DNA of 43,903 nucleotides from positions 1-43,903 of the forward strand of contig CAJWIB010000001.1 of the NCBI GenBank assembly GCA_913041095.1. The letters are read 5' to 3'. A model generated the notes under the pieces. The model saw nothing but the letters and a program-made list of their open reading frames with translations, had not been told where the DNA came from and ran no database searches. Source of the DNA: an uncultured Rhodospirillaceae bacterium (GTDB lineage: Bacteria > Pseudomonadota > Alphaproteobacteria > Rhodospirillales > UBA2165). Every line of letters starts with the position of its first letter. Position 1 is the first letter of the stretch. Shown here piece after piece: positions 1,044-20,580 of this stretch. Made by a program: the position numbers and the translations under genes.

Positions 1044-1817
1044 TTACAAATCAAGCTCACACCAGACCGGCGTGTGATCGGACGGCTTTTCCCAGCCGCG
1101 CGGCGTGCGATCAACGCCTGAGGCCGTCAATAAGTCAGTGGCTTGCGGTGACAGCAGGAGATGATCGATGCGGATGCCATTGTCTTTGTTCCAGGCGCCG
1201 GCCCGGTAATCCCAATAGGAATAGCGGCCGGCTTCCGGGTTAAAGACCCGGAACGCATCGGTGAGGCCAAGATATATAAGTTTCCGCCATGCCGCATGAG
1301 TCTCTGGCCGGAACAGCGCATCGCCGCGCCAGCTTTCCGGGTCATGGACGTCGGCATCTTCCGGAATGACATTGTAGTCGCCGCCCAATACAAACACGTC
1401 CTCGGTGGCGAGCAATTCTTTTGCGTGATCATGCAGGCGAGCCATGAAACCGAGCTTATAGGGATATTTTTCCGTATCCACGGGGTTGCCATTGGGTAGA
1501 TAGATCGCCGCTACGCGAACGCCGCCCGTAAATCCTTCAATATAGCGGGCTTGCTCATCACTCGGATCGCCCGGTAGCTCCGTCAGCTCGATATCAATCG
1601 GTGTTTTGGAAAGAATGGCGACGCCGTTATAGGTTTTCTGGCCGGCGACAGCGATGTTGTAGCCTTTATCTTCAACTTCCAAATGCGGAAAAGCTTCGGC
1701 AACGCATTTAAGTTCCTGGAGTAAAACCACATCCGGCGAAAAGTCATCCAGCCATCTGAGCAGATGGGCTAGGCGGGCTTTAACCGAATTGACGTTCCAT
1801 GTCGCTATTTTAACCAT
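1044..1817 (-). CDS. xthA: Exodeoxyribonuclease III
   Basis: 257 aa. It begins MVKIATWNVNSVKARL, contains LLQELK, and ends ..IDHLLLSP..SDHTPVW, all typical of ExoIII/AP endonuclease family 1. Confidence 0.9.
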   Translation of the reverse strand: MVKIATWNVNSVKARLAHLLRWLDDFSPDVVLLQELKCVAEAFPHLEVEDKGYNIAVAGQKTYNGVAILSKTPIDIELTELPGDPSDEQARYIEGFTGGVRVAAIYLPNGNPVDTEKYPYKLGFMARLHDHAKELLATEDVFVLGGDYNVIPEDADVHDPESWRGDALFRPETHAAWRKLIYLGLTDAFRVFNPEAGRYSYWDYRAGAWNKDNGIRIDHLLLSPQATDLLTASGVDRTPRGWEKPSDHTPVWCELDL

Positions 1818-1892
1818 TCAAGCTTTATCCAAAAAAAGAAGACCCGATTAAGGGCCGTTCATAACACATTATTTATAACTGCCAAAGGATAG

Positions 1893-2222
1893 CTAAACCG
1901 CAAAGGAGACGCCACAGCCACAAGAAGATGTCGCACTAGGGATGTTGAGTCTAAACGCCGCGCCCATCAGATCATCGACAAAATCGACTTCTGAATTGCC
2001 GAGAATTTCGAGAGACATATCATCAATGATAATTTTGACACCATGATCTTCAAAAATTTGATCCTCAGCAGTTTTGTTTGCATCAAGATCGAAGCCATAA
2101 GAAAAACCTGAGCACCCTCCTGCCGATACAGTCACGCGCAGCATTAATTGATCGTTGCCATCTGAGGCTATGAGATCAGTGACGCGGTTGGCGGCACTTT
2201 CAGTAATGGATAAGGCATTCAT
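1893..2222 (-). CDS. erpA: Iron-sulfur cluster insertion/carrier protein, HesB/IscA/ErpA family
   Basis: 109 aa. It has GGCSGFSY and the C-terminal SCGCGVSFAV signature of A-type Fe-S carriers. Confidence 0.85.
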   Translation of the reverse strand: MNALSITESAANRVTDLIASDGNDQLMLRVTVSAGGCSGFSYGFDLDANKTAEDQIFEDHGVKIIIDDMSLEILGNSEVDFVDDLMGAAFRLNIPSATSSCGCGVSFAV

Positions 2223-2619
2223 AATTTATTCTCTTAACGGCGAAACATTTACGTAATGATAACAATTCGCAAGACTTTTTGTAATCCAAAATATTGGATT
2301 GTCAAATAATTCACCGAATTGATTAAACATCTACAGTGTCCGCTTTAGGTTAAAGAACGGACATTATTTTCCGGCTGCTTGATGTCCGCTATTAGCCAGA
2401 AGCAGTCATCTATTGATTTGTCGACGTTGTTCGCAAGGTAATTTGACGTCAGAATCATCCAAGTTTTTGCGCACTCAATCAAGCATTCTGGAGAATGAAG
2501 TCCACCGCCCGATCGGCGACCATCATGGTCGGTGCGTTGGTATTGCCCGAAACTAGCGTCGGCATGACTGAGCAATCGGCGCCGCGCAAATTTTCGATCC
2601 CCTAGAACCGCAAGTTTAG

Positions 2620-2805
2620 ATCGAGCACCGCAACCGCATCAACGAGATCGAGAACTTCTGGAACCAAGCCAAACAGCATCTCTGCCGCTACAACGGCATT
2701 CCCAAGCACCACATCCATCTTTATCTCAAGGAATGTGGGTGGCACTTCAACTACCGGCCTACAGCCAATCTGTTGAAGGTTTTGATGCAATGGGCCAAAA
2801 TGTGA
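2620..2805 (+). mobile_element. IS1595-family transposase C-terminal remnant
   Basis: Translation is IEHRNRINEIENFWNQAKQHLCRYNGIPKHHIHLYLKECGWHFNYRPTANLLKVLMQWAKM*. This matches the conserved C-terminus (H.NxIENFW..AK..L..fnGi.k..f.lyLKEcE.RFN) of IS1595/IS1016-group transposases. A stop lies directly upstream, and the sequence further upstream (about 2440-2620) shows only broken frames. Confidence 0.7.
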
Positions 2806-2844
2806 ATACTTTGAGTTTATCTATGTCAGCCCCTTGTGTTATTA

Positions 2845-4176
2845 CTATTTATCCAAGACACGGACCACCTTCCCAACTGAAATCCTCATTAAATCTTTGC
2901 CGACCACCATCTTCCCAGAATACGTTTTGCGTGCTCGTTCGATAATCTTATCAGGCGAAACACCATATGTTACCAAATGGGTGAAGACCCCGAGTTTGGG
3001 TTTGACTGCGGCAAATACCTTACCAACTCTTTCAGGTGTGACGTGGTTATCTTCAAATGTAGCGAAGAAGGGGATCTGTTTCTTAAATTGTTCAGACACT
3101 GCCGCTACTTCGTGTATCACAAGGTCAGCACCTTTAGCTGCATCAATCACACATTGACAGTATTTAGTATCACCAGAAAGAACAACAGCACGGCCAGCGT
3201 AATCGATTCGAAACCCAAACGCATATTTAAAGGGTTGATGATCGACCATGAATGCCCGAATTGATACGCCATTTTTGTTATAAACCTCTCCCGGATATAC
3301 ATCGCGTGCAATGATCTTGTTGGCTTCTTTTTTTGCTTTATGACGAACGCGGATATCTTCGGCATAGGCAGCTTCCAAGTTAGTCATAAGGCTTTTTGTC
3401 CCCGGTGGGCCCCAAACTTGGAACGGTGTAAGTCGACCAAACATACGACCGGAAAGCCATAGATCTGGAATTCCTTCAACATGGTCGGAATGCAGGTGAG
3501 TTAGAAATAATTTGTCAGCTCTGGCAAAATAGGGGCGGGCTCGCAGAGGATGCTCGCCGCCAAGCTGGAAGATTCGGATTGTAGCACCTCGTCCGGCATC
3601 AAATACAAAGCCGCCTGCGTCAGTCTCAATTAGGGTAGATGGCCCGAAGCGCTTTACTCTCGGGGGTGGCGCTCCGGTGCCAAGTAATGTGACCCGGAAC
3701 AGTGGTTCCTCAGTTGCCGATTTAGGACATCCGGCTCCAGTAAAGAAGCCGCTGATCTCGGCTCCATCCAGTCCTTTGTTCTTATCACAGTCCATGGCCT
3801 TAAAATTGGAAAACAGGATGGCTTTGGCTTCGTTCTTCTGAACCAGTCCATCCTTATTGGTATCCATGGCTTTCGCCCGGTCCGAAAGAGGAGGAAATTT
3901 TGATTTCTTTTTAGGTGCAGCAGCTTTTGGACACTCTGTTCCCGTAAAGAAGCCGCTTATTTCAGCGCCGTCCAATCCACCATTCTTGTCACAGTCCATA
4001 TCTTTGAAATTGGATTTTAACATGCCCTGGGCTTCGCCCTCCTGAACTAACCCATCCTTATTGGTGTCCATGGCTTTTGCCCGATTTGAGAGTTCTTTCC
4101 CCTGGCTCATTGTAATTGACGAATGGGCCAAGGTGGTGGCCGCGATGAGTATGCTGATAAGTGCTGTGCGTTTCAT
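2845..4176 (-). CDS. Secreted protein: signal peptide, 2 x (paired EF-hand-like Ca-binding module), metallo-beta-lactamase-fold hydrolase domain
   Basis: The likely start is M13 of the track ORF (ATG at 4174-4176), with GGGAGG 7 nt upstream. MKRTALISILIAATTLAHS looks like a signal peptide. The loops DTNKDGLVQEGE and DCDKNGGLDGAE each occur twice. The C-terminal domain has THLHSDH (the HxHxDH motif of the MBL/RNase Z-like fold). Confidence 0.8.
   Translation of the reverse strand: MKRTALISILIAATTLAHSSITMSQGKELSNRAKAMDTNKDGLVQEGEAQGMLKSNFKDMDCDKNGGLDGAEISGFFTGTECPKAAAPKKKSKFPPLSDRAKAMDTNKDGLVQKNEAKAILFSNFKAMDCDKNKGLDGAEISGFFTGAGCPKSATEEPLFRVTLLGTGAPPPRVKRFGPSTLIETDAGGFVFDAGRGATIRIFQLGGEHPLRARPYFARADKLFLTHLHSDHVEGIPDLWLSGRMFGRLTPFQVWGPPGTKSLMTNLEAAYAEDIRVRHKAKKEANKIIARDVYPGEVYNKNGVSIRAFMVDHQPFKYAFGFRIDYAGRAVVLSGDTKYCQCVIDAAKGADLVIHEVAAVSEQFKKQIPFFATFEDNHVTPERVGKVFAAVKPKLGVFTHLVTYGVSPDKIIERARKTYSGKMVVGKDLMRISVGKVVRVLDK
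3721..4092. repeat. Intragenic tandem duplication (2 x about 204 nt) encoding the EF-hand pair module
   Basis: Residues L41-K96 and L109-K164 of the track ORF are near-identical with a 68-aa period. The plus-strand spurious ORFs at 3857 and 4061 both start MVSMAFAR and lie 204 nt apart, which shows the DNA-level repeat. Confidence 0.85.
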
Positions 4177-4537
4177 GATTGATACCTCCCTGCTTTCGGC
4201 GTCGGTTTTCAACGCTTCTCAGATCTTTCCTTTAGTATGGTAGTATGGTCTTGGCGATTAGTTAGCATCACGCATAAGGTCACTGTCAAGGATTGCCTCT
4301 GACGGCGATACCTTGCCACGGGAAAATACCACGTTACCCGTATTATTGATCGTTTTGTAGAGCCCTAGTCTTACTGTGTCACAAATGGCCCGACCAGAGG
4401 TTAGCACAATTTGGCTATTGAAACATGCGCCCGGGCCCCTGGGCATTGCCGTTTGGAGGTGCTTCAGCAACGAGAGTGGCCACACTATGAGAGGCTAACA
4501 GTAAATCACCTTGATTTTAATCAAACGGTGAAGGGAG

Positions 4538-5458
4538 CTATTTACCGTTCTCAAAGGGTTTAATTACGGCATAGAGCGTTTCATTGACCGGTGTTGGGAT
4601 ATTTAATTTTCTACCCATCCTCACCACTGCGCCCGTTAACCAGGGAGTTTCGAGGCGGTAACCTTTCTCCAAATCCTTCAGCGTTGAAGCTGTCATATCC
4701 GGCGGCATCTTGTTGGTGGCAAAGTCCATCTGGCGCTCGACGATGTCGTCCGGCAAATTCGCACCAGTTGCACGCCCGACTGCTGCTATCTCTGTCATTG
4801 TCGCACGATATGTCTTCGCCATGTCTGGATTGGCGAGAATTTTTCCGATCGGGCTCCGGGACGCTGTCGTCATGCCGCTCAACGTGGCCAAGGTTACAAA
4901 TTTTTCCCATACGGCTACCTGAATATCATCTGGGATCATCGCTTCAATGCCACTGTCTTGGCAGGCTTTTAAAAATGCCTTAGTCCGATCTGATATTTGG
5001 TTATTGCTCTCGCCAAAAATCAGTTTGGCAAAATTTCCAAAATGCTGAATGACACCGGGTTCGGCGATCACAGATGATACTTGCGCAGTTCCGGTAAGCG
5101 CATGTTTAGCGCCAATTTTCTCAGCTATCACCATGCTGCTTTCGACTCCATTTTGTAGTGATATAACAGTGGTGTTGTTCGCCAGCATCTGCTTGCAGGC
5201 TCTAGCCGAAGCCGCGGTATCCCAAAGTTTAACAGCAAAGAGGATGACATCGACCGGCCCGACACTGGCGGTATCATCCGTCGCGTTTGCGTTGGGTATA
5301 TGAACGTCGCCTAGCTCGCTTCGTACTTTTAAACCCTGGCAGCGAATGGCTTCCAGATGTTTTCCACGGGCGATAAAGACGACATCATGACCGGCTTCGG
5401 CCAATCGCACGCCAAAGTATCCACCAACTGCACCCGCTGCCATAACCGCAATTTTCAT
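4538..5458 (-). CDS. panE: 2-dehydropantoate 2-reductase family (ketopantoate reductase-like) oxidoreductase
   Basis: The start was moved to MKIAVMAAGAVGGYFG (Rossmann GxGxxG; ATG at 5456-5458), 1 nt after the upstream stop. Length and C-terminal domain are consistent with the ApbA/PanE family. The true substrate is uncertain. Confidence 0.75.
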   Translation of the reverse strand: MKIAVMAAGAVGGYFGVRLAEAGHDVVFIARGKHLEAIRCQGLKVRSELGDVHIPNANATDDTASVGPVDVILFAVKLWDTAASARACKQMLANNTTVISLQNGVESSMVIAEKIGAKHALTGTAQVSSVIAEPGVIQHFGNFAKLIFGESNNQISDRTKAFLKACQDSGIEAMIPDDIQVAVWEKFVTLATLSGMTTASRSPIGKILANPDMAKTYRATMTEIAAVGRATGANLPDDIVERQMDFATNKMPPDMTASTLKDLEKGYRLETPWLTGAVVRMGRKLNIPTPVNETLYAVIKPFENGK

Positions 5459-5459
5459 T

Positions 5460-5867
5460 CTAAATCTCCGTCCGCTCACAAATCTCGAACAGGAGGTCTG
5501 TATCATTGTCGCGTCTAAAAAATGCAACTTGGCCGTGAGAACCTTCGCGGGGGAAGCCGTCCATTATTTTAAATTTAGCCTCGGTAAATTCGTTGATGGC
5601 TTTATTAAGATCATTTACACCTATAGAAATATGATTGAGGCCGATTTCGTTGCCCATGACCTCTTTGGCGAAATTTGATTCTGGTCCCACATATTCGATC
5701 AGCTCCAAAGAAATATTTTCAGCCTCAAAAGTGGCAATGCGCAATCCAACGTCAGGCATGTCTTTGGTGTAGGCGGGTTTGCCGCCGATCAGGAAGCGAA
5801 ATCTCTCAATCGCTTTGTCGAGGTCGGCGACAATTATGCCAAGATGATCAATTCTAAGCCTGCTCAT
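5460..5867 (-). CDS. VOC (glyoxalase/bleomycin resistance/dioxygenase) family protein, methylmalonyl-CoA epimerase-like
   Basis: 135 aa. The sequence IDHLGIIVADLDKAIERF ... LNHISIGVNDLNKAI shows the paired beta-alpha-beta-beta-beta modules of VOC proteins. Confidence 0.75.
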   Translation of the reverse strand: MSRLRIDHLGIIVADLDKAIERFRFLIGGKPAYTKDMPDVGLRIATFEAENISLELIEYVGPESNFAKEVMGNEIGLNHISIGVNDLNKAINEFTEAKFKIMDGFPREGSHGQVAFFRRDNDTDLLFEICERTEI

Positions 5868-6090
5868 GGGCGGTTACTCCGTACAGTTTTGTTGGCCGTA
5901 TCATCCAATTCTAAACTCTCCGGATTAATAACAACACCATAATCCACCTTAGCCCGCTTGACCGATACCCGCCCGTTTTTAACTTCATTGAGAACAACCT
6001 CAATCGGACGCTTGAACGGGTCGCCATAGCCGCCACCACCACCGCCGGCGATTTGGCTGAGGACGGTATGATTAGTAATGTTTTTAGCAA
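5864..6090 (-). pseudogene. Hydantoinase B/oxoprolinase (HyuB-type) C-terminal stump
   Basis: The reverse translation is ..NHTVLSQIAGGGGGGYGDPFKRPIEVVLNEVKNGRVSVKRAKVDYGVVINPESLELDDTANKTVRSNRP*. The GGGGGYGDP...V..DV..G.VS...A...YGVV tail is characteristic of HyuB. There is no start codon, a stop lies upstream, and the frame runs into an AT-rich tract. Its TGA overlaps the ATG of the VOC gene (ATGA). Confidence 0.7.
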
Positions 6091-6290
6091 TTTCTTTTGA
6101 ATTATGGAGACTAGGATTATCTTTCTATAAATGATATTTTGTTAATAATGATTGAATGTCATTTTTGATAATTTCTCAATATGTTATTTTACCGTTATAT
6201 ACTAATAGGTTAACCTCATATTCTGTCTCATTCATAACTCCTATCTCATTACGATGAGCCAGAAATTCACTCTTATCAAATACTACAAGC

Positions 6291-6322
6291 TAGTGCCATA
6301 AGCGCTGACGAGGGACAGATGC
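6291..6322 (+). repeat. 32-nt intergenic motif, copy 1 (TAGTGCCATAAGCGCTGACGAGGGACAGATGC)
   Basis: It matches 15440-15471 at 27 of 32 positions in the same orientation. Both copies lie 120-150 nt upstream of plus-strand genes. Confidence 0.7.
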
Positions 6323-6471
6323 TTGTAGTGGGAACACAACACTGGACGCGGGCACCTTTCTAATTTTTCTTCGTGCTCTTTGTGCCCTTTGTGGTAACTA
6401 AACGTCGTCAACATTTTTGTGAGGGGCACCTTAAACGACTATTGTGCAGGTCGATAGGATGTGCCAAGAAG

Positions 6472-7695
6472 ATGTCCTTATGTTATTTTAATGAGTACGA
6501 AAATTTGCCCCAAGAAAAACGCCGTGGCCGCCCAATTTATCTTGATAATCACGCGACCACAGCAGTGGATGAGCGGGTGGTGGAAGCCATGCTGCCTTAT
6601 TTCTCCAAGCAATTCGGCAATCCGCATTCAGGCAACCATTTTTATGGGTGGGAGGCAGCCGAAGCGGTCGAGCTGGCGCGTGCGCAAGTCGCTGATGCCA
6701 TAAATGCTGCGCCCGATGAAATTTACTTCACTTCCGGCGCCACCGAGGCCAACAATTTGGCGATCAAAGGCGTTGCCCGGTTTTACCGCGATAAAAAGAA
6801 CCATATCATCACCTGCGTTTCCGAACATATGTGCGTGCTTGATACCTGTTTCCAATTGGAGAACGAAGGCAACCGGGTTACCTATCTGCAAGTCGATAGC
6901 GACGGTATGATAGATCTGGACGCGCTTAAAGACGCGATCTCAGAGGACACCGTGCTGATCTCGATTATGACTGTGCAGAACGAAATCGGTGTTATTCAGC
7001 CAATGGCCGAAATTGGCGCTATTGCTCATGAAAATAAAGTGCTGCTGCACAGTGATGCGGCACAGGCGCTGGGTAAAATCTTGCTCGACGTTAAAGCAAT
7101 GAACATCAATCTGATGAGCATCACGGGTCATAAAGTTTATGGACCGATGGGGTTGGGCGCGCTCTATGTTAGTAATAAACCCCGGGTTCGCCTGAAACCG
7201 ATTTTCAGTGGTGGTGGTCAGGAGAGAAATCTGCGTTCCGGTACTTTGCCGGCGCCGCTCTGTGTCGGCTTTGGTAAAACCTGTGAGCTCGCCGTGGCAG
7301 AGATGCCGGCAGAAGCTGAACGCCTTCAGAAAATGCGGGATGGGGTGATCGAGAAACTGACGAGTGAGTTGGATGGTATCCTGATCAATGGCGGGATGGA
7401 ACACCGTGTGTCCGGAAATTTAAACATCAGCATTGAAGGCGCGGATGCCGAAAGCCTGATGGCGGCATTGCCTGATCTGGCGATGTCATCGGGTTCGGCC
7501 TGTTCGTCGGCGTCTGAAGAATCTTCCTATGTGCTGCAGACCATTGGCCTCAGTGACAAAATGGCAGAAACCAGCCTGCGCATTGGGCTTGGCCGCTTTA
7601 ATACCGAAAATGAAGTTGAGTACGCGGCTGAACGCCTGATCGAAGAAATCACCAATGTGCGTGAAGGCCGGAAAAAGATTTCAGCCGCGGAGTAG
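6472..7695 (+). CDS. iscS: Cysteine desulfurase, IscS/NifS group I
   Basis: It is collinear with IscS. Matching segments are RPIYLDNHATT, FTSGATEANNLAIKG, the PLP-lysine context SITGHKVYGP, RSGTL, and the active-site loop SSGSACSS. I prefer the ATG at 6472. The track start at 6373 (GTG) lies inside a repeat element. No iscU/iscA/hscBA genes are adjacent. Confidence 0.85.
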   Translation: MSLCYFNEYENLPQEKRRGRPIYLDNHATTAVDERVVEAMLPYFSKQFGNPHSGNHFYGWEAAEAVELARAQVADAINAAPDEIYFTSGATEANNLAIKGVARFYRDKKNHIITCVSEHMCVLDTCFQLENEGNRVTYLQVDSDGMIDLDALKDAISEDTVLISIMTVQNEIGVIQPMAEIGAIAHENKVLLHSDAAQALGKILLDVKAMNINLMSITGHKVYGPMGLGALYVSNKPRVRLKPIFSGGGQERNLRSGTLPAPLCVGFGKTCELAVAEMPAEAERLQKMRDGVIEKLTSELDGILINGGMEHRVSGNLNISIEGADAESLMAALPDLAMSSGSACSSASEESSYVLQTIGLSDKMAETSLRIGLGRFNTENEVEYAAERLIEEITNVREGRKKISAAE

Positions 7696-7706
7696 CCTAA
7701 GATGGC

Positions 7707-7886
7707 CTAAGGAGGATTGCCGGTTTTTTTGTAATATTCAGCGAGCGCGTCATCGAAGGCTTTTATTTCCTCTTCCGGCACCGGCAGGCCACATTCATAA
7801 CATTCGTTGTTCATGCGGTCGAACCAGCGGCAGCCACATTCGTTACAGCCAAGTTCCGGCGCGCCGGCGGGATTGGTGAATAACAT
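7707..7886 (-). CDS. Unannotated 59-aa Cys-rich (zinc-ribbon-like) protein
   Basis: It is missing from the ORF track because it is 59 aa. The sequence is MLFTNPAGAPELGCNECGCRWFDRMNNECYECGLPVPEEEIKAFDDALAEYYKKTGNPP*. GGAG lies 8 nt upstream of the ATG and immediately after the stop of the upstream gene (12-nt gap). The Cys pattern is CxxCxC-x9-CxxC. Confidence 0.6.
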   Translation of the reverse strand: MLFTNPAGAPELGCNECGCRWFDRMNNECYECGLPVPEEEIKAFDDALAEYYKKTGNPP

Positions 7887-7898
7887 TCGTTCCGCTCC

Positions 7899-8354
7899 TT
7901 AACGGCAGGGGCCCAAAAACGACAGCCCAACAACTTCAAGGAAATCATAATAGCCGTAATCTTCGAGATCGTCCCGGCCAATCATAAAGAATAATATGAT
8001 CTGGCCGTGATTGGCGCGCTTGACTAATTCCTCGACCAGCACTTCTTCGGTGGCGCCCTGCATCATCGCCAAGGTGTCATCATCAACAACGAACAGCAGA
8101 TCGACATTGGCACGGTGAAAATGCTGGCGTTTAAAACGTTCGTATTCGACGCTAACGCCATCCGTCTCGATATTCCAGACCAGCATAGTGCCATCGAGCT
8201 GGGCAATCGATGTAGAAAAATCACCGTTACAGAATATGCCTATGCGGCCTCCCGGATCGATCGTCGAAAACGCCTCGGGGCAGGCATCGAGCATTCGCTG
8301 CCAGCCTTCGACATCGGCAAGAATTCGATCTGTATCGATGACTTGTGCGTCCAT
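7899..8354 (-). CDS. Hypothetical protein (about 151 aa; alternative start at 8387)
   Basis: The ORF sits between the OYE-type gene and the small Cys-rich ORF on the same strand. The ATG at 8352-8354 lies 4 nt after the upstream stop. I recognise no family. Confidence 0.6.
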   Translation of the reverse strand: MDAQVIDTDRILADVEGWQRMLDACPEAFSTIDPGGRIGIFCNGDFSTSIAQLDGTMLVWNIETDGVSVEYERFKRQHFHRANVDLLFVVDDDTLAMMQGATEEVLVEELVKRANHGQIILFFMIGRDDLEDYGYYDFLEVVGLSFLGPCR

Positions 8355-8358
8355 TAAA

Positions 8359-10344
8359 TTAAATCCTGCATCCCAACCGGAAGCCATTATGGATCGCTAG
8401 AGTGAGATCACCCGGCACCATGGCGTCACCGGTTCCGTGCAATTCATCGACCATCCATTGGAAATCCTGGAATAAAGCTTGATTGGGACGAATGGGCGAG
8501 GCAGCGATAATGACATCAGCGGCGATAACGCGTTCTTCTTCGCCGGTCATGACCTTGACGCCTTCAGTAGAGATGCCCAGCACCTTGGCGTCGGTTACGG
8601 TTTCGATGCCAAGCTCCTTAATCCAAGACGTGTGCCGCCATTTCCACGTCGGTGCTACATCATGGCCGAGACGCCGGTTTTTATCGATAATGACGACCTC
8701 ATAGCCCTGGTCTTTGAGCGATTCTGCAAGCGTCAAGCCAATCTTGCCACCGCCGATGACGGCGATGCTCTGACCTTTCTCTATCTCGACTTTACCTTTG
8801 GCGACATCGAAAGCATCGACCACAGGTGCACCTTCGGAAATCGGCAGGGTGTCCATATCGACTATGGCGCCGGTTGCCAGAATAACTGCATCATACTCGT
8901 GCAACATCCCACGCATCATTTTAGGCGTTGGTTCAATACCAAATTTGACTTCGATACCATGCTTTTCGGCCATTACCTCGTAGTAAAATACCATCCGCTT
9001 CAAATCTTCCGGATGCGCCAAATCGTTGGCAGCATAACCGCGCAGGGCGCCGCCGATGACATCGGATTTTTCGAAGACAGTTACTTTATGACCGCGCTGA
9101 GCAGCCGTGATGGCGGCCTCCATACCGGAGGGGCCGGCACCGACAACCATTACCCGTTTGATCGTCACCGCCGGTGAAATGTTGTATTCAGGCTCGTATT
9201 CGTGACCCAAAGCTGGGTTGATCGTGCAGGTATAAGGCAGATCGCGGAACAGCCGCGACAGGCAATTGAGCGAGCCGACGCAGACCTTGGCTTCGTGCAA
9301 GCGGTGCTCTTTGGCTTTGTGAATTAGTTGCGGATCGGCCAGTAGTGGCCGGCAAACCTCCCAATAATCAAAAATACCATCATTGAGGCATTCTTCCGCC
9401 ATTACCGGATCGGGCAGACGGCCACCGTAAGCCAGCGGTAAATCCGGCAATTCTTTTTTGGCGCGCGCGGCTAGATAATTCCAATGGCCCGGCGGGACAT
9501 CGCGGCCAATCGAAGATTCTGGTGCTTCCTGCCAGCCAATAGTCAAGCTCAGCATATCCATGCCAGCGTCGGCAGCGATGTGCATGATCTCGAAACATTC
9601 ATCGACCGTGTTGCCACCCCATTGATCCATCAACTCGGCGCCGTTAAGGCGGACAATCAAAGGATAATCATCACCGATTCTTTGCTTGATGGCGTCGATC
9701 AGCTCGACTAGGAAACGTGCCCGGTTCTCGACCGACCCGCCATATTCGTCGGTCCGCTGGTTAGTGAAGTTGGAGAGAAAATTAGCCAGCAAATAACCCA
9801 TAAAGCTGGTGATCTCGACGCCATCAAATCCGGCACGGATCGATAGCTCAGAGGCAAAGGCGTGCTGCTCGATGCACTCCTTAATTTGTTCCTTGGTCAT
9901 TTCCCGGGGCGGGCGGAAATGAGGTAAAGTTTGGGGTACGACCGAAGGCTGAACACAATAGCCGAGATCAATGCCGCCATACCGGCCGGCGTGCAAAATC
10001 TGTTGGATCGCCATGGCATTATTGTCGTGGATATATTCGGCAATGGTCTCAAACTGGGGCAGGAATTTTTCATCGTAAAGCGCGATTTGGGTGTAATAAG
10101 CTTTGCCCTCGCCCAGCGGATCGGCATAGGCACCCTGGTTGGTGATCATGCCGCAGCCGGATTCAGCAATGACCTTCATACGCGCCAATTCTCGCGGCGT
10201 GATCGAGCCATCGGTATTGTTGAAATTGGAGACACAACAGGCGCCGTATTTCACCCGATTAGTTAATTCGTATTTGCCGAATTTTACCGGCTCGAAAAGC
10301 TTGGTGAGTTCAGGCGATTGAGTTTTTTCCGGTTGGGCGTCCAT
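8359..10344 (-). CDS. NADH:flavin oxidoreductase (OYE-like TIM barrel) fused to an FAD/NAD(P)-binding domain (2,4-dienoyl-CoA reductase / amine dehydrogenase / N-methylproline demethylase superfamily)
   Basis: 661 aa. QQILHAGRYG and the barrel layout are typical of the FadH/TMADH class. VMVVGAGPSGMEAA and IAVIGGGKIGLTLA are two dinucleotide-binding GxGxxG motifs. The inter-domain Fe-S motif reads C-V-G-S-L-N-C-x11-C (see findings). Confidence 0.8.
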   Translation of the reverse strand: MDAQPEKTQSPELTKLFEPVKFGKYELTNRVKYGACCVSNFNNTDGSITPRELARMKVIAESGCGMITNQGAYADPLGEGKAYYTQIALYDEKFLPQFETIAEYIHDNNAMAIQQILHAGRYGGIDLGYCVQPSVVPQTLPHFRPPREMTKEQIKECIEQHAFASELSIRAGFDGVEITSFMGYLLANFLSNFTNQRTDEYGGSVENRARFLVELIDAIKQRIGDDYPLIVRLNGAELMDQWGGNTVDECFEIMHIAADAGMDMLSLTIGWQEAPESSIGRDVPPGHWNYLAARAKKELPDLPLAYGGRLPDPVMAEECLNDGIFDYWEVCRPLLADPQLIHKAKEHRLHEAKVCVGSLNCLSRLFRDLPYTCTINPALGHEYEPEYNISPAVTIKRVMVVGAGPSGMEAAITAAQRGHKVTVFEKSDVIGGALRGYAANDLAHPEDLKRMVFYYEVMAEKHGIEVKFGIEPTPKMMRGMLHEYDAVILATGAIVDMDTLPISEGAPVVDAFDVAKGKVEIEKGQSIAVIGGGKIGLTLAESLKDQGYEVVIIDKNRRLGHDVAPTWKWRHTSWIKELGIETVTDAKVLGISTEGVKVMTGEEERVIAADVIIAASPIRPNQALFQDFQWMVDELHGTGDAMVPGDLTLAIHNGFRLGCRI

Positions 10345-10712
10345 GGTGTTTTCCTAGGCTGCGATATTGATAACAGATACTAAATATTGTTTTGGTTGCG
10401 AACAATGTATGAAACAAATCTAGCCTTCTTATAGTTGTTGATCAAGCTTAGTAGGTAGTGGTTTTTGTGGTCGGATTTAAGTAAGCTATTCCAATAATTT
10501 CCGGGGAGAATTAGTTCATGCGATCTCGATTTCTAGTTATTGGCCTTGCAATTCCAACAGTAGCACTGATTATTTTTTATATTCTGTTTTTCTTGTACCC
10601 GCAGTGGTTCCCTAGATAGAACAAGACGGCAATTAATTTCAAAGGATGGGGAAATGAAAATGGCGGATGTTAATCCAGAAACCAGAGCCAAATGGAATAA
10701 GCTGCTCAATAA

Positions 10713-11000
10713 GTAATATTATGGCATTACATCCAATCTGACAATGGTTCTGAGTTTATTGCCCGTGATCTACAAGCTTGGTTCAAGAAGGTCGGCATCA
10801 AACTAATCCAAATCTATCCCAGTAGTCTTTGGGAGAATGGATACAACGAACGCTTCAATGGCTCCTTCAGAAGAGCAGTTTTAAACGCCGAATGGTTCTC
10901 GACTATTAAACAGGCTCAGATCGTCATTAATACCTGGTTAAAATAGTATAATCATATCCGACCCCATCAGTCATTAAACATGAGGCCGCCAGTGCCTAAA
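10713..11000 (+). mobile_element. IS3-family transposase OrfB (DDE integrase core) C-terminal remnant with in-frame TAG at 10944-10946
   Basis: Translation is ..IQSDNGSEFIARDLQAWFKKVGIKLIQIYPSSLWENGYNERFNGSFRRAVLNAEWFSTIKQAQIVINTWLK*YNHIRPHQSLNMRPPVP. It has the SDNG.EF, P..NG..ERFN and YN..RPH hallmarks of the rve domain. The N-terminal two-thirds are absent. Confidence 0.8.
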
Positions 11001-11404
11001 ACTCTACTACAAAGTGGTACTGAAAATTGGGGCTGGACAAGAAAGATGGAGTTTATTGGTCAGTGATAATCTAACGTTTGAGCCAGTCGCGTGGATTTTT
11101 ACCGATTACGCCAAGCTCAAGGGGTTGCGCCCGAGACCAAAACGATTGACGGCAATGAAAGCGTCTTTTGAGACCATGGAGGTTAACCCCTATTATTGTT
11201 GACCGGTTATCCCTTTTCAAGTTGTCCAAAATCAATTGAAACGTCCCGGTTTTATACTATCACTAACGCGAATTTCAGAGAATTCAGCCGCCTATAAGAG
11301 AAATTGTTTTTCAATAGTGCTTCCAAATGGCAAAATATTCTCACCAATGTTGCGGCAGGCAACTCAAAAAAATTAAAACTTAAGACCGATTAGAGGCTAA
11401 CAAA

Positions 11405-15938: not shown

Positions 15939-18191
15939 ATGAATAAGGTGGATGATGTGAAAATTGTTAAAACCGGCGCGTGGTCGGGTGGACCAGGGTG
16001 CCATGGCGGTTGCGGTGTTGATTTGCATATCAAAGACGGCAAGCTGGTCAAAGTTGAAGGCGACGAGGATCACCCGTTTCATCAGGGCCGGCTTTGTCCC
16101 CGGGCTTTGGCGCTAACCCAATACGCTTATCATGAAGACCGGCTGCAAACGCCGCTGAAGCGAGTTGGTGAGAGGGGTTCCGGCGAATGGGCGAAAATTT
16201 CGTGGGATGAAGCGCTCGACGAGTGTGAATATGAATTGCGCAAAATCCGCGACGAGTACGGTGCTGAATCGATGGTGTTTGGTCAAGGCACCGGGCGCGA
16301 TGCCGGTGGACCGCTAATCTTTATGGCTTATGCCTATGGCAGTCCTAATTGGACTTTATTTGGTCTGTCCGGCATTTCATGTTTTACACCGCGATTGGCC
16401 GGGATGCACACTGTTGCCGGTGATATTACATTTCCTGATGCCGCGCAGTTTTCACCCGAGCGTTACGATGATCCAGAATACACACCGCCCGAGGTGATGC
16501 TGCACTGGGCCCGGGGTATTCGCGGCTCTCAATGCACCGATCACTATTTCTCCGGCCACTATGTCGTCGACATGATGAAGCTCGGCACTAAGCTGATCGT
16601 TATCGATCCGCGCTTCTCTTGGGCAGCGTCCCGGGCTGAGTTGTGGTTGCAAATCCGTCCTGGCACCGATGGTGCGCTGGCGCTCGGTATGCTCAATGTT
16701 ATTATTAACGAGAACCTCTACGATAAGGAATTCGTTGAAAAATGGACCCACGGTTTTGAGGAACTTAAACAACGGGTGCAGGACTATCCACTGGCCAAGG
16801 TTTCTGAGATTACCTGGATTCCGACGGAAGATATTGTCAAGGCTGCCCGCATGTATGCCAAGGCCAATCCAGGCGCCATCCGGTTTGGCCAGCCATTGGA
16901 TTCCAACGCTCAAGCCACTGCTACCATGCATGCGCTCAACTGTCTGTGGGCGATTACCGGCAATACGGATATTCCCGGTGGTAACATTATCTGCCGCCCG
17001 CCTTATGGCGTGTCGCTTTATCCGTATTCGACCGAGGAAGTGATCCAGCTTTATGGTGAGGAGTTAGTCAATAACCTCAATAAAAAACGTATCGGCGCTG
17101 ACAAGTTCCCACTGGTGAAGAATTTCCGCGCCTGGGCGCTGGCCGATACAGTGCTTGAGCAGATGGAGTCCGGTGACCCTTATCCGATCAAGGGACTCTG
17201 GCTCTACACCAACAATTTCATGGCCGGCACGGCACAGGACCCGAGGCGGCATTATGAAGCGGTTAAGAAGCTCAATTTCAATGTCGTTGTCGATAACTTC
17301 ATGACACCGACTGCCTCGGCCATTGCCGATATCGTATTACCCGGCCAGACCATGGCGGAAAAAGATTCCGTTTTTACCACCGGTGTTATTCTTAACGCCA
17401 TGCATGGGCCGCTTAAAATCGGCGATACCAAGTCTGGCTGGGATGTTGCCTTTGAAATGGGCAAACGGCTCAATCCGCAGGCGGTACCGTGGGATACGCT
17501 ACAGGATCTGTTTACCGAACGCTTGCGCCCGGCGGGGGTTACCTTCAATGAATTGGTTGAAAATAATGGTATGCTGACGCCAAAGGATCACATTTCCGGT
17601 GGCAGACCTTACCGCCGTCATGAAAAAGGTCAGCTGCGGCCGGATGGTGAACCCGGTTTCCGTACACCGACCGGTAAGATCGAACTTTATTCGACCAAGT
17701 TCGAGGAATATGGCCTCGACCCGCTGCCTTTCCACGAAGAACCCGTTGAAAGCCCGATTAGCACACCGGAGATATTCAAAGAGTATCCGCTGATCATGAT
17801 AACCGGGCGACGCAATCCGACTTATTACCATAGTGAGCACCGGCAAATCCCCTGGCTGCGGCAGTTTGACGGGGAGCCCTATGTCGAGTTGCATCAGGAA
17901 ACTGCTGCCGAACTTGGCGTTGAGGATGGAGAATGGGTCTGGATCGAAGGCGTACGCGGCAAGGTCAAACGCAAGCTCAGAACTACGCCGGTGGTGCACC
18001 GGCAAATGGCGATGGCGCCGCATGGTTGGTGGTATCCGGAAAAGGAAAACAAAGCGCCGATTCTCAATGGCATTTGGGATATCAACCTCAACCAATTGAT
18101 CCCAATGGGTCATCAAGGTAAATCCGGCTTTGGCGGCGCGCCACTCAAGACCATGCTGTGCAAAATTTATCCGATGGAGAAAGTCTCTTAG
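15939..18191 (+). CDS. Molybdopterin (bis-MGD, DMSO-reductase/MopB superfamily) oxidoreductase large subunit, cytoplasmic (locus A)
   Basis: 750 aa. It has an N-terminal Fe-S-like motif GCHGGC-x27-CPR and a MopB-like domain order with a C-terminal dinucleotide-binding domain. There is no RR leader. Its paralogue is at 31712-33949. Confidence 0.8.
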   Translation: MNKVDDVKIVKTGAWSGGPGCHGGCGVDLHIKDGKLVKVEGDEDHPFHQGRLCPRALALTQYAYHEDRLQTPLKRVGERGSGEWAKISWDEALDECEYELRKIRDEYGAESMVFGQGTGRDAGGPLIFMAYAYGSPNWTLFGLSGISCFTPRLAGMHTVAGDITFPDAAQFSPERYDDPEYTPPEVMLHWARGIRGSQCTDHYFSGHYVVDMMKLGTKLIVIDPRFSWAASRAELWLQIRPGTDGALALGMLNVIINENLYDKEFVEKWTHGFEELKQRVQDYPLAKVSEITWIPTEDIVKAARMYAKANPGAIRFGQPLDSNAQATATMHALNCLWAITGNTDIPGGNIICRPPYGVSLYPYSTEEVIQLYGEELVNNLNKKRIGADKFPLVKNFRAWALADTVLEQMESGDPYPIKGLWLYTNNFMAGTAQDPRRHYEAVKKLNFNVVVDNFMTPTASAIADIVLPGQTMAEKDSVFTTGVILNAMHGPLKIGDTKSGWDVAFEMGKRLNPQAVPWDTLQDLFTERLRPAGVTFNELVENNGMLTPKDHISGGRPYRRHEKGQLRPDGEPGFRTPTGKIELYSTKFEEYGLDPLPFHEEPVESPISTPEIFKEYPLIMITGRRNPTYYHSEHRQIPWLRQFDGEPYVELHQETAAELGVEDGEWVWIEGVRGKVKRKLRTTPVVHRQMAMAPHGWWYPEKENKAPILNGIWDINLNQLIPMGHQGKSGFGGAPLKTMLCKIYPMEKVS

Positions 18192-18795: not shown

Positions 18796-19590
18796 CTATT
18801 CGGAAACACCGTGCTGGTCAATAAAATTGGTTATCGCCTTGATCGTTGCAGCTGGTTGATCCAAATGCGCTGAGTGTTTGGCACCTTCGATTATAACTGT
18901 TTCGGTTAGGCAATTTAAGCCGGCTTCAATCGCATTAACTTGAGCAATCGAGCCATATTGATCATCAGCCCCCTGCATAACGAGTGAGGGAACGTCGATG
19001 CCGGGTAAAAACTCTTCGATATTCCAATGCCAGAAATCCGCATGGAGCCAAATGTCATTCCAGCCGCGAAAAGCGCAGTCGACATTGTCACCATGATATT
19101 TGGTGAGGCCTTGCCGCAAATCTGTTGTTTCATAGGCAATCTTGGCCTTGGCGATACTATTCACGGTGACTTCTTCATTAAAAATATGGGCGGCTATTAA
19201 GATGATAGCTTTAACCCGCGGGTCTTTAACCGCGCCGGCATGAATAATCGCAATCGAACCGCCGTTGCTATGACCGATCAAAATGGTCGAAGAGATACCC
19301 GCCGCATCAAGCACCGGAGACACCACGTTCAATCCTTCATGGTGCATATACTCTACCGGTCGCGGCAGCGGGATCGGATCGGAGGCGCCATAGCCTTGGC
19401 GGCTATAAACAAAACCATTCAGTCCTACTTCCTGGCAGAGTTTTTCCGGAAAATCGCGCCACATCGCAACACAGCCCAATCCTTCATGCAGAAAAACCAA
19501 AACAGGCTTCTCAGGACCGGCGCCAGCATCAAGTTGTAGACATTCCAGTTTAACGTTGTTGACGTTAATAAATTGCGGATCAACCGTCAT
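18796..19590 (-). CDS. Alpha/beta hydrolase
   Basis: 264 aa. It has VLVFLHEGLG (oxyanion region), the GHSNGGS nucleophile elbow and a C-terminal GAKHSAHLDQP (catalytic His region). Confidence 0.8.
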   Translation of the reverse strand: MTVDPQFINVNNVKLECLQLDAGAGPEKPVLVFLHEGLGCVAMWRDFPEKLCQEVGLNGFVYSRQGYGASDPIPLPRPVEYMHHEGLNVVSPVLDAAGISSTILIGHSNGGSIAIIHAGAVKDPRVKAIILIAAHIFNEEVTVNSIAKAKIAYETTDLRQGLTKYHGDNVDCAFRGWNDIWLHADFWHWNIEEFLPGIDVPSLVMQGADDQYGSIAQVNAIEAGLNCLTETVIIEGAKHSAHLDQPAATIKAITNFIDQHGVSE

Positions 19591-19596
19591 TAAATG

Positions 19597-20580
19597 TTAG
19601 AGGCCAAACATCTTTATCGCATTGCCGCCTTTAATTGCTTTCGCTTCATCAGCCGGGCGAGTGGCGATCAAATCATAGAGCTTTGGTATGTCGCAGGGCA
19701 TCGGGAAGTCGGTGCCGAACAACACTTTTTCAGGTCCGGCGATATCAATGCAGAGGCTTAGTGCACCTGGATCATAGAGCACGGCATCATAATAAATACA
19801 GCTGAAATATTCGCTCGGCAGTTTGTCAATTTTCATCTTCACCAGGGTTTCGACTTTGAAGAACATATCGACCCGGCCATTGACGTAAGGAATGTAGCCG
19901 CCGCCATGCGAAGCAATTACCTTTAAATCCTGAAAACGTTCGAAGAATCCGTCGACCGCCATACGCGCGATGCCAATCGTGGTATCAAACATAAAGCCTA
20001 CTCCAGGCATCAAAATACGCTCGATACCAAACTCAGCTTCCTTGGCGCCAAAGGGGGCTGTCGGATGAACCAGTACGGGCAGTGCGTGTTTGTTTATCTC
20101 AGCCCATACCGGCTTGAACAACGGATCAATCAGATGCTTGCCGTTGATGCTGGCAGTGACCATAACGCCAACCGCACCTTTCTCAAGAGCCCGGTTCAAT
20201 TCGGCGATAGCTTTATCCGGATATTCGAATGGTAGGGAGGCAAACCAGCGAATGCGATCCGGATAGGCTATCTGGCCCGCCACCATCTCATCATTTGCCA
20301 GCTGGGCGGTCTTGGCGCTAACTTCTTCGCCGCCCCAATAAACATTGGGCGAAGTTAATGAAACAATTGAAACGTCGATACCGTGTTCATTCATGGCGAC
20401 GATGCGCGCGTCATAGTCGAAGGCTTCCTTTTCCAAGGCGCAGGCAGTCGCCCCTTTTTCCACCAGATAGTCGCGGCCATCCTCCATCGTGCCGGTGCTG
20501 TAGGTCGGGCCGCCATGTTTGTGCAGCATGTCGAGCCAGGAATTGCCAAACATGTGGGTGTGAATGTCGACGACGGTCAT
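19597..20580 (-). CDS. Amidohydrolase-2 family protein (ACMSD / non-oxidative aromatic-acid decarboxylase-like)
   Basis: 327 aa. It has an N-terminal VDIHTHM (HxH metal site), HPT.., SHGGG and FGTDFP (Asp), typical of the PF04909-type amidohydrolase/decarboxylase family. It lies 6 nt upstream of the hydrolase gene. Confidence 0.75.
   Translation of the reverse strand: MTVVDIHTHMFGNSWLDMLHKHGGPTYSTGTMEDGRDYLVEKGATACALEKEAFDYDARIVAMNEHGIDVSIVSLTSPNVYWGGEEVSAKTAQLANDEMVAGQIAYPDRIRWFASLPFEYPDKAIAELNRALEKGAVGVMVTASINGKHLIDPLFKPVWAEINKHALPVLVHPTAPFGAKEAEFGIERILMPGVGFMFDTTIGIARMAVDGFFERFQDLKVIASHGGGYIPYVNGRVDMFFKVETLVKMKIDKLPSEYFSCIYYDAVLYDPGALSLCIDIAGPEKVLFGTDFPMPCDIPKLYDLIATRPADEAKAIKGGNAIKMFGL

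Follow-up and report, generated by a model that had tools for sequence, protein, structure and literature searches.

The stretch of DNA analysed here is 43,903 nucleotides long and is called the window below (contig CAJWIB010000001.1 of assembly GCA_913041095.1, from an uncultured Rhodospirillaceae bacterium). On its minus strand it carries an operon of three genes that encode an old yellow enzyme-type (OYE-type) reductase with a flavin adenine dinucleotide (FAD) domain, a mid-size protein and a small cysteine-rich protein. The trio recurs as a tight, conserved module in other genomes, which suggests a multi-subunit form, not described before, of a familiar class of enzymes. The features on which the argument draws are the following.

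8359-10344, minus strand: the OYE-FAD reductase of 661 aa, defined by its open reading frame (ORF) and Pfam domains.
7899-8354, minus strand: the mid-size partner of 151 aa, an ORF whose start was set by homologues.
7707-7886, minus strand: the Cys-rich partner of 59 aa, defined by its ORF, conservation and substitution pattern.
9214-9282, minus strand: the iron-sulfur (Fe-S) linker motif of the reductase, C355-V-G-S358-L-N-C361-x11-C373-T-I-N-P, placed by alignments to FadH, histamine dehydrogenase (HDH) and 2-naphthoyl-coenzyme A (CoA) reductase (NCR).
10345-10635, minus strand: non-coding DNA upstream of the operon that probably serves as its promoter or 5' leader, marked by conservation in the related loci L016 and L017.

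The reading frames agree with the spacing of 4 and 12 nt that an earlier note on this DNA had described: the ATG of the 151-aa gene stands 4 nt past the reductase stop and that of the 59-aa gene 12 nt past the 151-aa stop. AAGGAG precedes the start of the 59-aa gene, where the note had seen a GGAG ribosome-binding site, and AGGA-type sites precede the starts of the reductase and the 151-aa gene. The 59-aa sequence and its CxxCxC-x9-CxxC pattern had been given exactly. The longest possible ORF for the mid-size gene begins at 8387, and homologues start at MDAQ or VDAQ, matching the 151-aa form, which supports the shorter start as the probable one. In the window the trio is a self-contained transcription unit, since a convergent gene lies downstream and about 1 kb of non-coding DNA followed by a divergent gene lies upstream. 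The convergent neighbour (6373-7695, plus strand) is a class-V aminotransferase/cysteine desulfurase-like gene (Aminotran_5, E 2e-79) whose stop is 11 nt from that of the 59-aa gene. On the other side, between the operon and the divergent gene of 724 aa, which by eye we take to be malate synthase G, lies an AT-rich spacer of about 1,060 bp (10345-11404; 39.8% GC vs 50.5% for the window).

The smallest gene had been described as missed. It did fall below the length cutoff of the first-stage ORF list, but public records already list it as a gene. Sequence searches gave more than 274 homologous protein clusters, and a pattern scan confirmed 214 loci, with one genome per species. The carriers are mostly metagenome-assembled genomes (MAGs) labelled Rhodospirillaceae/Rhodospirillales, Burkholderiales/Burkholderiaceae, Rhodocyclaceae or Xanthobacteraceae, together with two cultured organisms, Paramagnetospirillum caucaseum SO-1 and Aromatoleum tolulyticum; the nearest relatives of the window protein, 93-95% identical, come from uncultured Rhodospirillaceae MAGs. 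A search for annotated copies on plasmids gave no match. The first 33 residues hardly vary among 37 diverse members and read M-I-F-x-N-P-A-G-A-P-E-L-x-C-x-E-C-G-C-R-W-F-D-R-M-x4-C-Y-E-C-G, and the invariant positions include F3, N5, P6, G8-E11, C14, C17, C19, R20-R24, C29 and C32, hence all five Cys. Compared with the L016 orthologue there are 24 nucleotide differences, 22 of them at third codon positions, giving 20 synonymous vs 3 non-synonymous codon changes. Because the substitutions are mostly synonymous and at third positions, the 59-aa ORF is, on this evidence, a real translated gene under purifying selection, and a chance ORF is ruled out by the same pattern together with the conservation. 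The earlier note had made its claim depend on conservation of the small ORF downstream of orthologous operons, and such conservation was found.

Eighty genome loci encoding the small protein were retained, and their gene neighbourhoods were determined by tblastn. All 80 have the mid-size gene as the direct upstream neighbour of the small gene, the two genes overlapping by 4 nt in 40 of them, and a reductase of the trio type stands directly upstream of the pair in 73. Three others are cut off by a contig edge; in one of them the last 22 reductase residues can still be read. The same gene order is repeated in independent metagenome contigs. Flanking genes vary between lineages, and the trio therefore behaves as a mobile functional unit. 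The proposed linkage of the three genes was thus borne out in genome loci and metagenome contigs alike. In 73 loci, then, the reductase goes with both partners, and in four the pair stands with no reductase next to it.

The domain structure of the reductase is that of a known class. Pfam places Oxidored_FMN (PF00724; FMN, flavin mononucleotide) on residues 15-349 of the 661-aa protein (E 3.4e-56, profile positions 1-340 of 342) and also finds Pyr_redox_2 (PF07992, E 1e-27). With HMMER, the closest solved structure is NCR (6qkg, 418 bits), with an end-to-end alignment spanning residues 15-661. FadH follows (1ps9, 276 bits; reductase residues 15-547 and 551-659), then HDH and trimethylamine dehydrogenase (TMADH). 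Placement of the enzyme in the FadH/TMADH class was therefore correct, with NCR to be included. The reductase is not a member of any named NCBIfam equivalog, since all matches lie well under the curated cutoffs: the mycofactocin FadH/OYE oxidoreductase 2 model (TIGR03997) scored 395 bits vs an equivalog cutoff of 793, and the BaiCD bile-acid Fe-S flavoenzyme model (NF041087) 330 bits vs 825. No mycofactocin genes were seen near the trio in the window.

FadH and the window enzyme share a layout of an OYE triosephosphate isomerase (TIM) barrel with FMN, an Fe-S linker and Rossmann domains for FAD and reduced nicotinamide adenine dinucleotide (phosphate), NAD(P)H. They also share the proton-donor Tyr, both dinucleotide motifs and an acyl-CoA context. 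At an identity in the low 30s percent they differ in that FadH has four cluster Cys and is without described accessory proteins of such a kind, whereas the window enzyme has three Cys and two partner genes. Among 58 orthologues, 62-93% identical to the window protein, the FAD motif GAGPSG (402-407) and the second motif GGGKIG (531-536) are conserved, and an acidic residue at 554 (E or D; D554 in the window) is invariant or nearly so. Tyr184, in SFMGYLL, is invariant and lines up with the Tyr residues in SEGYLI of FadH and VGYLI of NCR; the alignment itself shows a conserved G-Y-L motif, and the counterpart of Tyr184 is presumably the proton-donor Tyr166 of FadH. NCR, a type III aryl-CoA reductase, makes no use of NAD(P)H, and an external ferredoxin has been postulated for it (PMC6502838). 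In its second alpha/beta domain it has GGNEIS, where the window reductase keeps an intact GxGxxG followed by the acidic residue. Because of this difference we infer that the window enzyme is NADH-linked and in its donor closer to FadH than to NCR, and the motif argues against NCR and the window reductase sharing an electron donor. NCR is further set apart by its canonical CTACNQGC cluster motif, by having no described SCP2-like or zinc-ribbon partners and by its origin in strictly anaerobic sulfate reducers, whereas the window module is found mostly in Rhodospirillaceae/Rhodospirillales, Burkholderiales/Burkholderiaceae and Rhodocyclaceae MAGs. As a separate observation, the clade-invariant Cys 36, 37, 130, 319 and 331 of the reductase all lie in the TIM barrel; the Cys-Cys pair in KYGACCVSN (residues 36-37, nt 10234-10239), Cys130 and Cys319 are absent at the aligned positions of NCR and FadH.

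The Fe-S linker departs from the class at a single ligand. In three alignments Ser358 falls on the second cluster Cys, the window reading CVGSLNC where FadH (1ps9) has CIGCNQAC, HDH (3k30) CIGCNIC and NCR (6qkg) CTACNQGC. The second ligand had already been suspected to be Ser, and this holds clade-wide: of the 68 readable motifs of orthologous reductases from the genome loci, 66 have Ser at the position and the other 2 have Gln. Tested against the four-Cys pattern CX2CX2-3CX11C, the window reductase shows only three Cys (C355, C361 and C373). The 23-residue linker, C[IV]GSLNCLSRLFRDLPYTCT.NP, is almost invariant across a clade that is only 62-93% identical overall. A fourth Cys elsewhere in the linker would have spoken against the proposed Ser; no replacement was found within residues 355-377, and the clade alignment shows only three ligand Cys. 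A sequencing error or local mutation is ruled out by the Ser in 66 of 68 orthologues and by the codon, TCG (9271-9273), which is two changes away from a Cys codon. Since Gln replaces Ser in 2 of the 68, the Ser358 hydroxyl is unlikely to be an essential or obligatory ligand.

The deviation extends beyond the trio. In an HMMER search of 1.8 billion cluster representatives for relatives of the reductase, the trio clade was in essence a single 50%-identity cluster (P0241, 63% identical to the window protein). The nearest relatives outside it are also without the second Cys: CLGGLVC at 51% identity, CIGDLMC at 46%, CIGLDLMC at 45% and CIGDLTC at 43%. The canonical CxxCxxC returns at 38% identity or below, in 92 of the 100 representatives in which the pattern detected a motif. 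In a 2025 survey of 2-enoate reductases about 92% of the second-largest cluster carries Ala at the same ligand position, and OYEBi, its Ala-variant representative, still contains a [4Fe-4S] cluster by inductively coupled plasma mass spectrometry and electron paramagnetic resonance, without a partner; in the OYEBi model the open cluster site faces FAD at a buried domain interface (PMC11759058). Cluster 2 of that survey and the window clade thus share a deviation at the second Cys of CX2CX2-3CX11C, filled by Ala or another non-polar residue in the former and by Ser (97%) or Gln in the latter; OYEBi, here compared by description, was purified and is active alone, with no partners reported. Given the published Ala cluster and the cluster binding of OYEBi, the three-Cys motif is established as a known kind of deviation for the class, and Ser is a further variant of it. 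The earlier note had called a degenerate motif beside a metal-binding partner unusual. On this point it has to be corrected, as a non-Cys residue here is not unusual (the Ala cluster; sister clades with Gly and Asp).

The same motif raises the idea that a partner completes the cluster, the fourth ligand being supplied in trans by C150 in the G-x-C-R tail of the 151-aa protein or by C19 of the 59-aa protein; the [4Fe-4S] cluster would then lie between subunits, and electron transfer would need partner binding. The reductase clade that carries the partners has Ser or Gln, residues whose ligand role is not established, and two relatives with a ligand-capable Asp at or near the position have no such partners. 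One of these, L096 (CIGDLMC, 46% identical; span 6001-11329), is followed by two glyoxalase-fold genes and then an SCP2-fused CoA ligase of the AMP-binding type (AMP, adenosine monophosphate), the small Cys protein being absent downstream; in the other, L097 (CIGLDLMC), no partner genes are found downstream. The partner pair therefore appears specific to the Ser/Gln clade. Each partner also has one invariant Cys that its own fold can spare, C150 in a tail predicted to be disordered and C19 outside the CxxC...CxxC ribbon, and a near-invariant linker is what would be expected of an interface. Cluster ligands shared between subunits are known, for instance in the three-Cys-plus-one-Asp cluster of dark-operative protochlorophyllide reductase. 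On the other side, the informative sister loci without partners number only two, and we do not favour trans-ligation because three-Cys enzymes hold a cluster alone, as OYEBi does without a partner, because the open site of OYEBi, modelled at a buried FAD interface, would be poorly accessible to a tail from outside, and because four loci have the pair with no reductase beside it. The link between motif and partners is weakened by those four Rhodocyclaceae-type loci and by the Asp variants L096 and L097 without partners. We consider trans-ligation unlikely. More generally, a connection between a metal-binding partner and the degenerate motif may exist, chiefly in view of the one unexplained invariant Cys in each partner, and is neither needed nor favoured by these data.

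The 151-aa protein had not been recognised in the earlier note, and searches bear this out: Pfam and NCBIfam gave no match for the family except a weak DUF192 hit in 6 of 42 members. Only four relatives came from a word-indexed search with the single sequence; once a profile took in the mid-size genes of distant trio loci, it retrieved 314 homologous clusters, all unnamed. The family ends in G-x-C-R in 79 of the 80 loci, and Cys150 (codon 7905-7907) is its sole invariant Cys. The confident AlphaFold2 (AF2) model (predicted local distance difference test, pLDDT, 85.6; predicted template modelling score, pTM, 0.81) leaves the last five residues disordered. Foldseek returned SCP2-like proteins as top matches in the PDB, namely Thermus TT1886 (1wfr), the C-terminal domain of SdsA1 (2cfu) and 2cx7, with a probability of 0.99, E of about 3e-3 and a TM-score of about 0.43, and these were the only PDB matches at high probability. 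The G-x-C-R tail has no counterpart in the SCP2 proteins.

The 59-aa protein was modelled with a pLDDT of 92.9, showing short beta-strands around both knuckles and a helix at 38-55. The knuckles, CNECG and CYECG, are both invariant in the 37 members and lie 9 residues apart. Structural matches and those of a PDB profile search were weak and all to zinc fingers or ribbons (in the profile search 2mxv, RanBP2-type, E 0.0055, and the eL37 zinc ribbon, E about 0.06), and Pfam L37e likewise matched weakly at E 0.023, under its cutoff. With the Cys4 zinc ribbons and RanBP2 fingers (eL37; RBM10, 2mxv) it shares two CxxC(G) knuckles, which in the small protein are predicted to lie on beta-hairpins. It differs from them by its fifth Cys (CxxCxC), an N-terminal F-x-N-P-A-G-A-P-E-L strand and a C-terminal helix, and it stands alone beside a metabolic operon without the ribosome or RNA link of eL37 or RBM10. 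Overall it has the look of a structural Cys4 zinc ribbon that carries an additional, fifth Cys, likewise invariant, and not of a recognisable Fe-S protein. That it is of a metal-binding type, as first proposed, is in line with its conservation, its five invariant Cys, the model and the weak zinc matches. Its public names are less apt. GenBank MAG records call it "cysteine protease" (e.g. MBT3917207.1, MDE2166989.1), and some Joint Genome Institute (JGI) records call it "ribosomal protein L37E" or "RpoP". These names lack domain or fold support and are misnomers; for the protease there is no Pfam or NCBIfam peptidase match, no invariant His and a model that resembles a zinc ribbon.

The two CxxCG knuckles also occur in rubredoxins, and the 59-aa protein might accordingly bind iron and, like a rubredoxin, carry electrons to or away from the reductase. 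Rubredoxin potentials are, however, far too high for dearomatising chemistry, the 9-residue knuckle spacing is that of a zinc ribbon, as are the weak matches, and the intact second GxGxxG with its acidic residue makes NADH the probable donor. NCR, the nearest solved relative, offers a precedent for an external carrier in the ferredoxin postulated for it (PMC6502838). A similar layout is seen in L099 (29-2777; P0247), where a four-Cys relative at 38% identity is followed by a 174-aa gene with a weak ATC_hydrolase match and by a gene for a dicluster ferredoxin of 68 aa. L099 consists of one short contig, and the two small genes on it were compared with the window partners and found not to be homologous. 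Other reductase branches may thus have small partners of their own, and we regard the carrier role for the 59-aa protein as very doubtful.

Evidence on the substrate comes from the genomic context in other lineages. An adenylating ligase lies within 8 kb of the trio in about 37 loci. Its nearest solved structures are a salicylate-AMP ligase (5wm2, 540 bits) and DhbE, a 2,3-dihydroxybenzoate-AMP ligase (1md9, 532 bits); on TIGR02275 it scored 575 bits, below the cutoff of 724. An aryl-acid ligase beside the trio parallels the aryl-CoA reduction carried out by NCR. Amidohydro_2 genes recur beside the trio in other loci, and homologues of dehydrogenase/hydratase, 4HBT and thiolase-type genes flank complete trios in L028, L045, L049, L070 and L075. 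This context suggests that the module serves the catabolism of an aromatic-acid CoA ester, perhaps salicylate- or dihydroxybenzoate-like. Because of the ligase, Amidohydro_2 and beta-oxidation genes, it points to an ortho-hydroxylated aromatic acid as the substrate, in the form of its CoA ester. The CoA thioester to be reduced is most likely formed during the breakdown of an aromatic or alicyclic acid.

Gene order, conservation, the state of the motif, the predicted folds and the genomic context together lead us to a joint reading in which the three genes encode one functional unit, with the two partners as non-catalytic subunits; we hold it with moderate confidence, at about an even balance. 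The reductase is probably an FMN/FAD/iron-sulfur enzyme of the FadH or NCR kind that reduces a C=C bond of a CoA thioester. Electrons would run from NADH to FAD, on to the linker Fe-S cluster and then to FMN, from which a hydride would pass to the substrate while Tyr184 donates the proton. The cluster would be held by C355, C361 and C373 and is most likely a [4Fe-4S] cluster in which one iron has no Cys ligand, by analogy with the Ala variant OYEBi, which still binds its cluster. Because half of the loci show the 4-nt overlap between the genes of the two partners, the proteins are presumably made together, and most likely they form a small heterodimer that docks on the reductase. Within it the weakly SCP2-like alpha/beta fold of the 151-aa protein would handle a hydrophobic acyl- or aryl-CoA ligand, and the Cys4 zinc ribbon of the 59-aa protein would serve as a structural clamp. 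The position of the Asp-variant relative in L096 beside an SCP2-fused CoA ligase counts in favour of this assignment. The reduced substrate would then be hydrated, oxidised and cleaved by thiolysis, in parallel to the logic of the benzoyl-CoA pathway.

Several points weigh against this joint reading. The SCP2-like assignment of the 151-aa protein is weak: no Pfam SCP2 match was found in 42 members, hhalign of the family against the SCP2 domain of the L096 ligase showed no similarity, and a PDB profile search with the family returned nothing. Membership in SCP2 at the sequence level was accordingly rejected, and the modelled fold is a lead and not a result. A purely structural role does not explain the invariant C150 and C19, and no fusion of trio proteins was seen among homologues of the 59-aa and 151-aa proteins. 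No ligase or beta-oxidation genes adjoin the trio in the window or in its closest relatives, and the substrate is for the window borrowed from other lineages. In addition, L090, L092, L094 and L095 have no reductase upstream (over about 4 kb in L092 and 8 kb in each of the other three). In L094 (span 1525-8153, Aromatoleum tolulyticum) and L090, a related MAG locus, the pair comes after a hydroxyacyl-CoA dehydrogenase/enoyl-CoA hydratase fusion and then a 4HBT thioesterase-like gene; a thiolase gene and regulators of the GntR and LuxR types lie in the vicinity. L092 has only the 4HBT-like gene upstream. As the pair follows 4HBT-like or dehydrogenase/hydratase genes in three of these loci, it may serve another pathway enzyme.

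Taken further, the same loci would make the partners servants of the downstream CoA-ester pathway and not of the reductase, a ligand-carrier and scaffold pair, only transcribed along with the reductase, for example for thiolase, hydratase or thioesterase steps. Zinc-ribbon DUF35 proteins do scaffold thiolases, and the dehydrogenase/hydratase, 4HBT and thiolase homologues that flank complete trios would fit. The pair nevertheless directly follows the reductase in 73 of the 80 loci whatever the neighbours, the trio of the window clade stands alone without beta-oxidation genes, and the 59-aa model has no oligonucleotide/oligosaccharide-binding (OB) fold, which defines DUF35 proteins. We consider this alternative rather improbable, if less so than ligation of the cluster in trans.

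A bolder version of the joint reading would make the trio a heterotrimeric OYE-type CoA-ester reductase whose cluster is completed or gated by a partner Cys and which reduces the ring of a hydroxybenzoyl-CoA (salicylyl-CoA or 2,3-dihydroxybenzoyl-CoA), linked to NADH and independent of adenosine triphosphate (ATP). We regard this as a long shot. If true, it would mean ATP-independent dearomatisation of monocyclic aromatic acids in facultative anaerobes and marine Alphaproteobacteria.

FadH, NCR and the 2-enoate reductases have been studied for anaerobic aromatic degradation and as biocatalysts, and to our knowledge each is regarded as an enzyme of one polypeptide. Neither the enzyme class nor the three-Cys deviation is new; what is new is the pair of partner families and its obligate-looking tie to the reductase. 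No description of the trio came to light in literature searches on OYEs and on reductases of salicylyl-CoA or dihydroxybenzoyl-CoA, and as far as we know the reductive step in the catabolism of salicylate or dihydroxybenzoate CoA esters is poorly defined. The clade, present in at least 214 genomes, nearly always comes with the two small proteins and a fixed three-Cys motif. A reductase expressed alone may therefore be an incomplete enzyme, and the site-differentiated iron may have a partner-dependent role. The analysis also defines two protein families without a Pfam or NCBIfam model and corrects the misleading "cysteine protease" name.

Around the operon, the stretch of about 290 bp upstream of the reductase start is 74% identical in L016 and L017, the closest MAG loci, and the similarity stops beyond it. 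A scan of this stretch for promoters and terminators gave nothing above background and no significant promoter consensus; the whole spacer (10345-11404) contains no convincing ORF, and an Rfam search of it was without a match. The cysteine desulfurase-like gene downstream was considered as a member of the system and rejected: it is syntenic only in the closest MAGs (L016, L017), is absent beside the trio elsewhere and is probably unrelated. Some 9 kb from the operon, an Amidohydro_2 gene (19597-20580, 327 aa) stands next to an alpha/beta-hydrolase gene (together 18796-20580, minus strand). Its protein is 42% identical to the trio-flanking copy in L008 and may be a detached member of the trio's pathway. 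Finally, a 750-aa molybdopterin oxidoreductase with an N-terminal Fe4S4 domain is encoded at 15939-18191 on the plus strand; a similar gene lies near the trio in L014, which may be coincidence.

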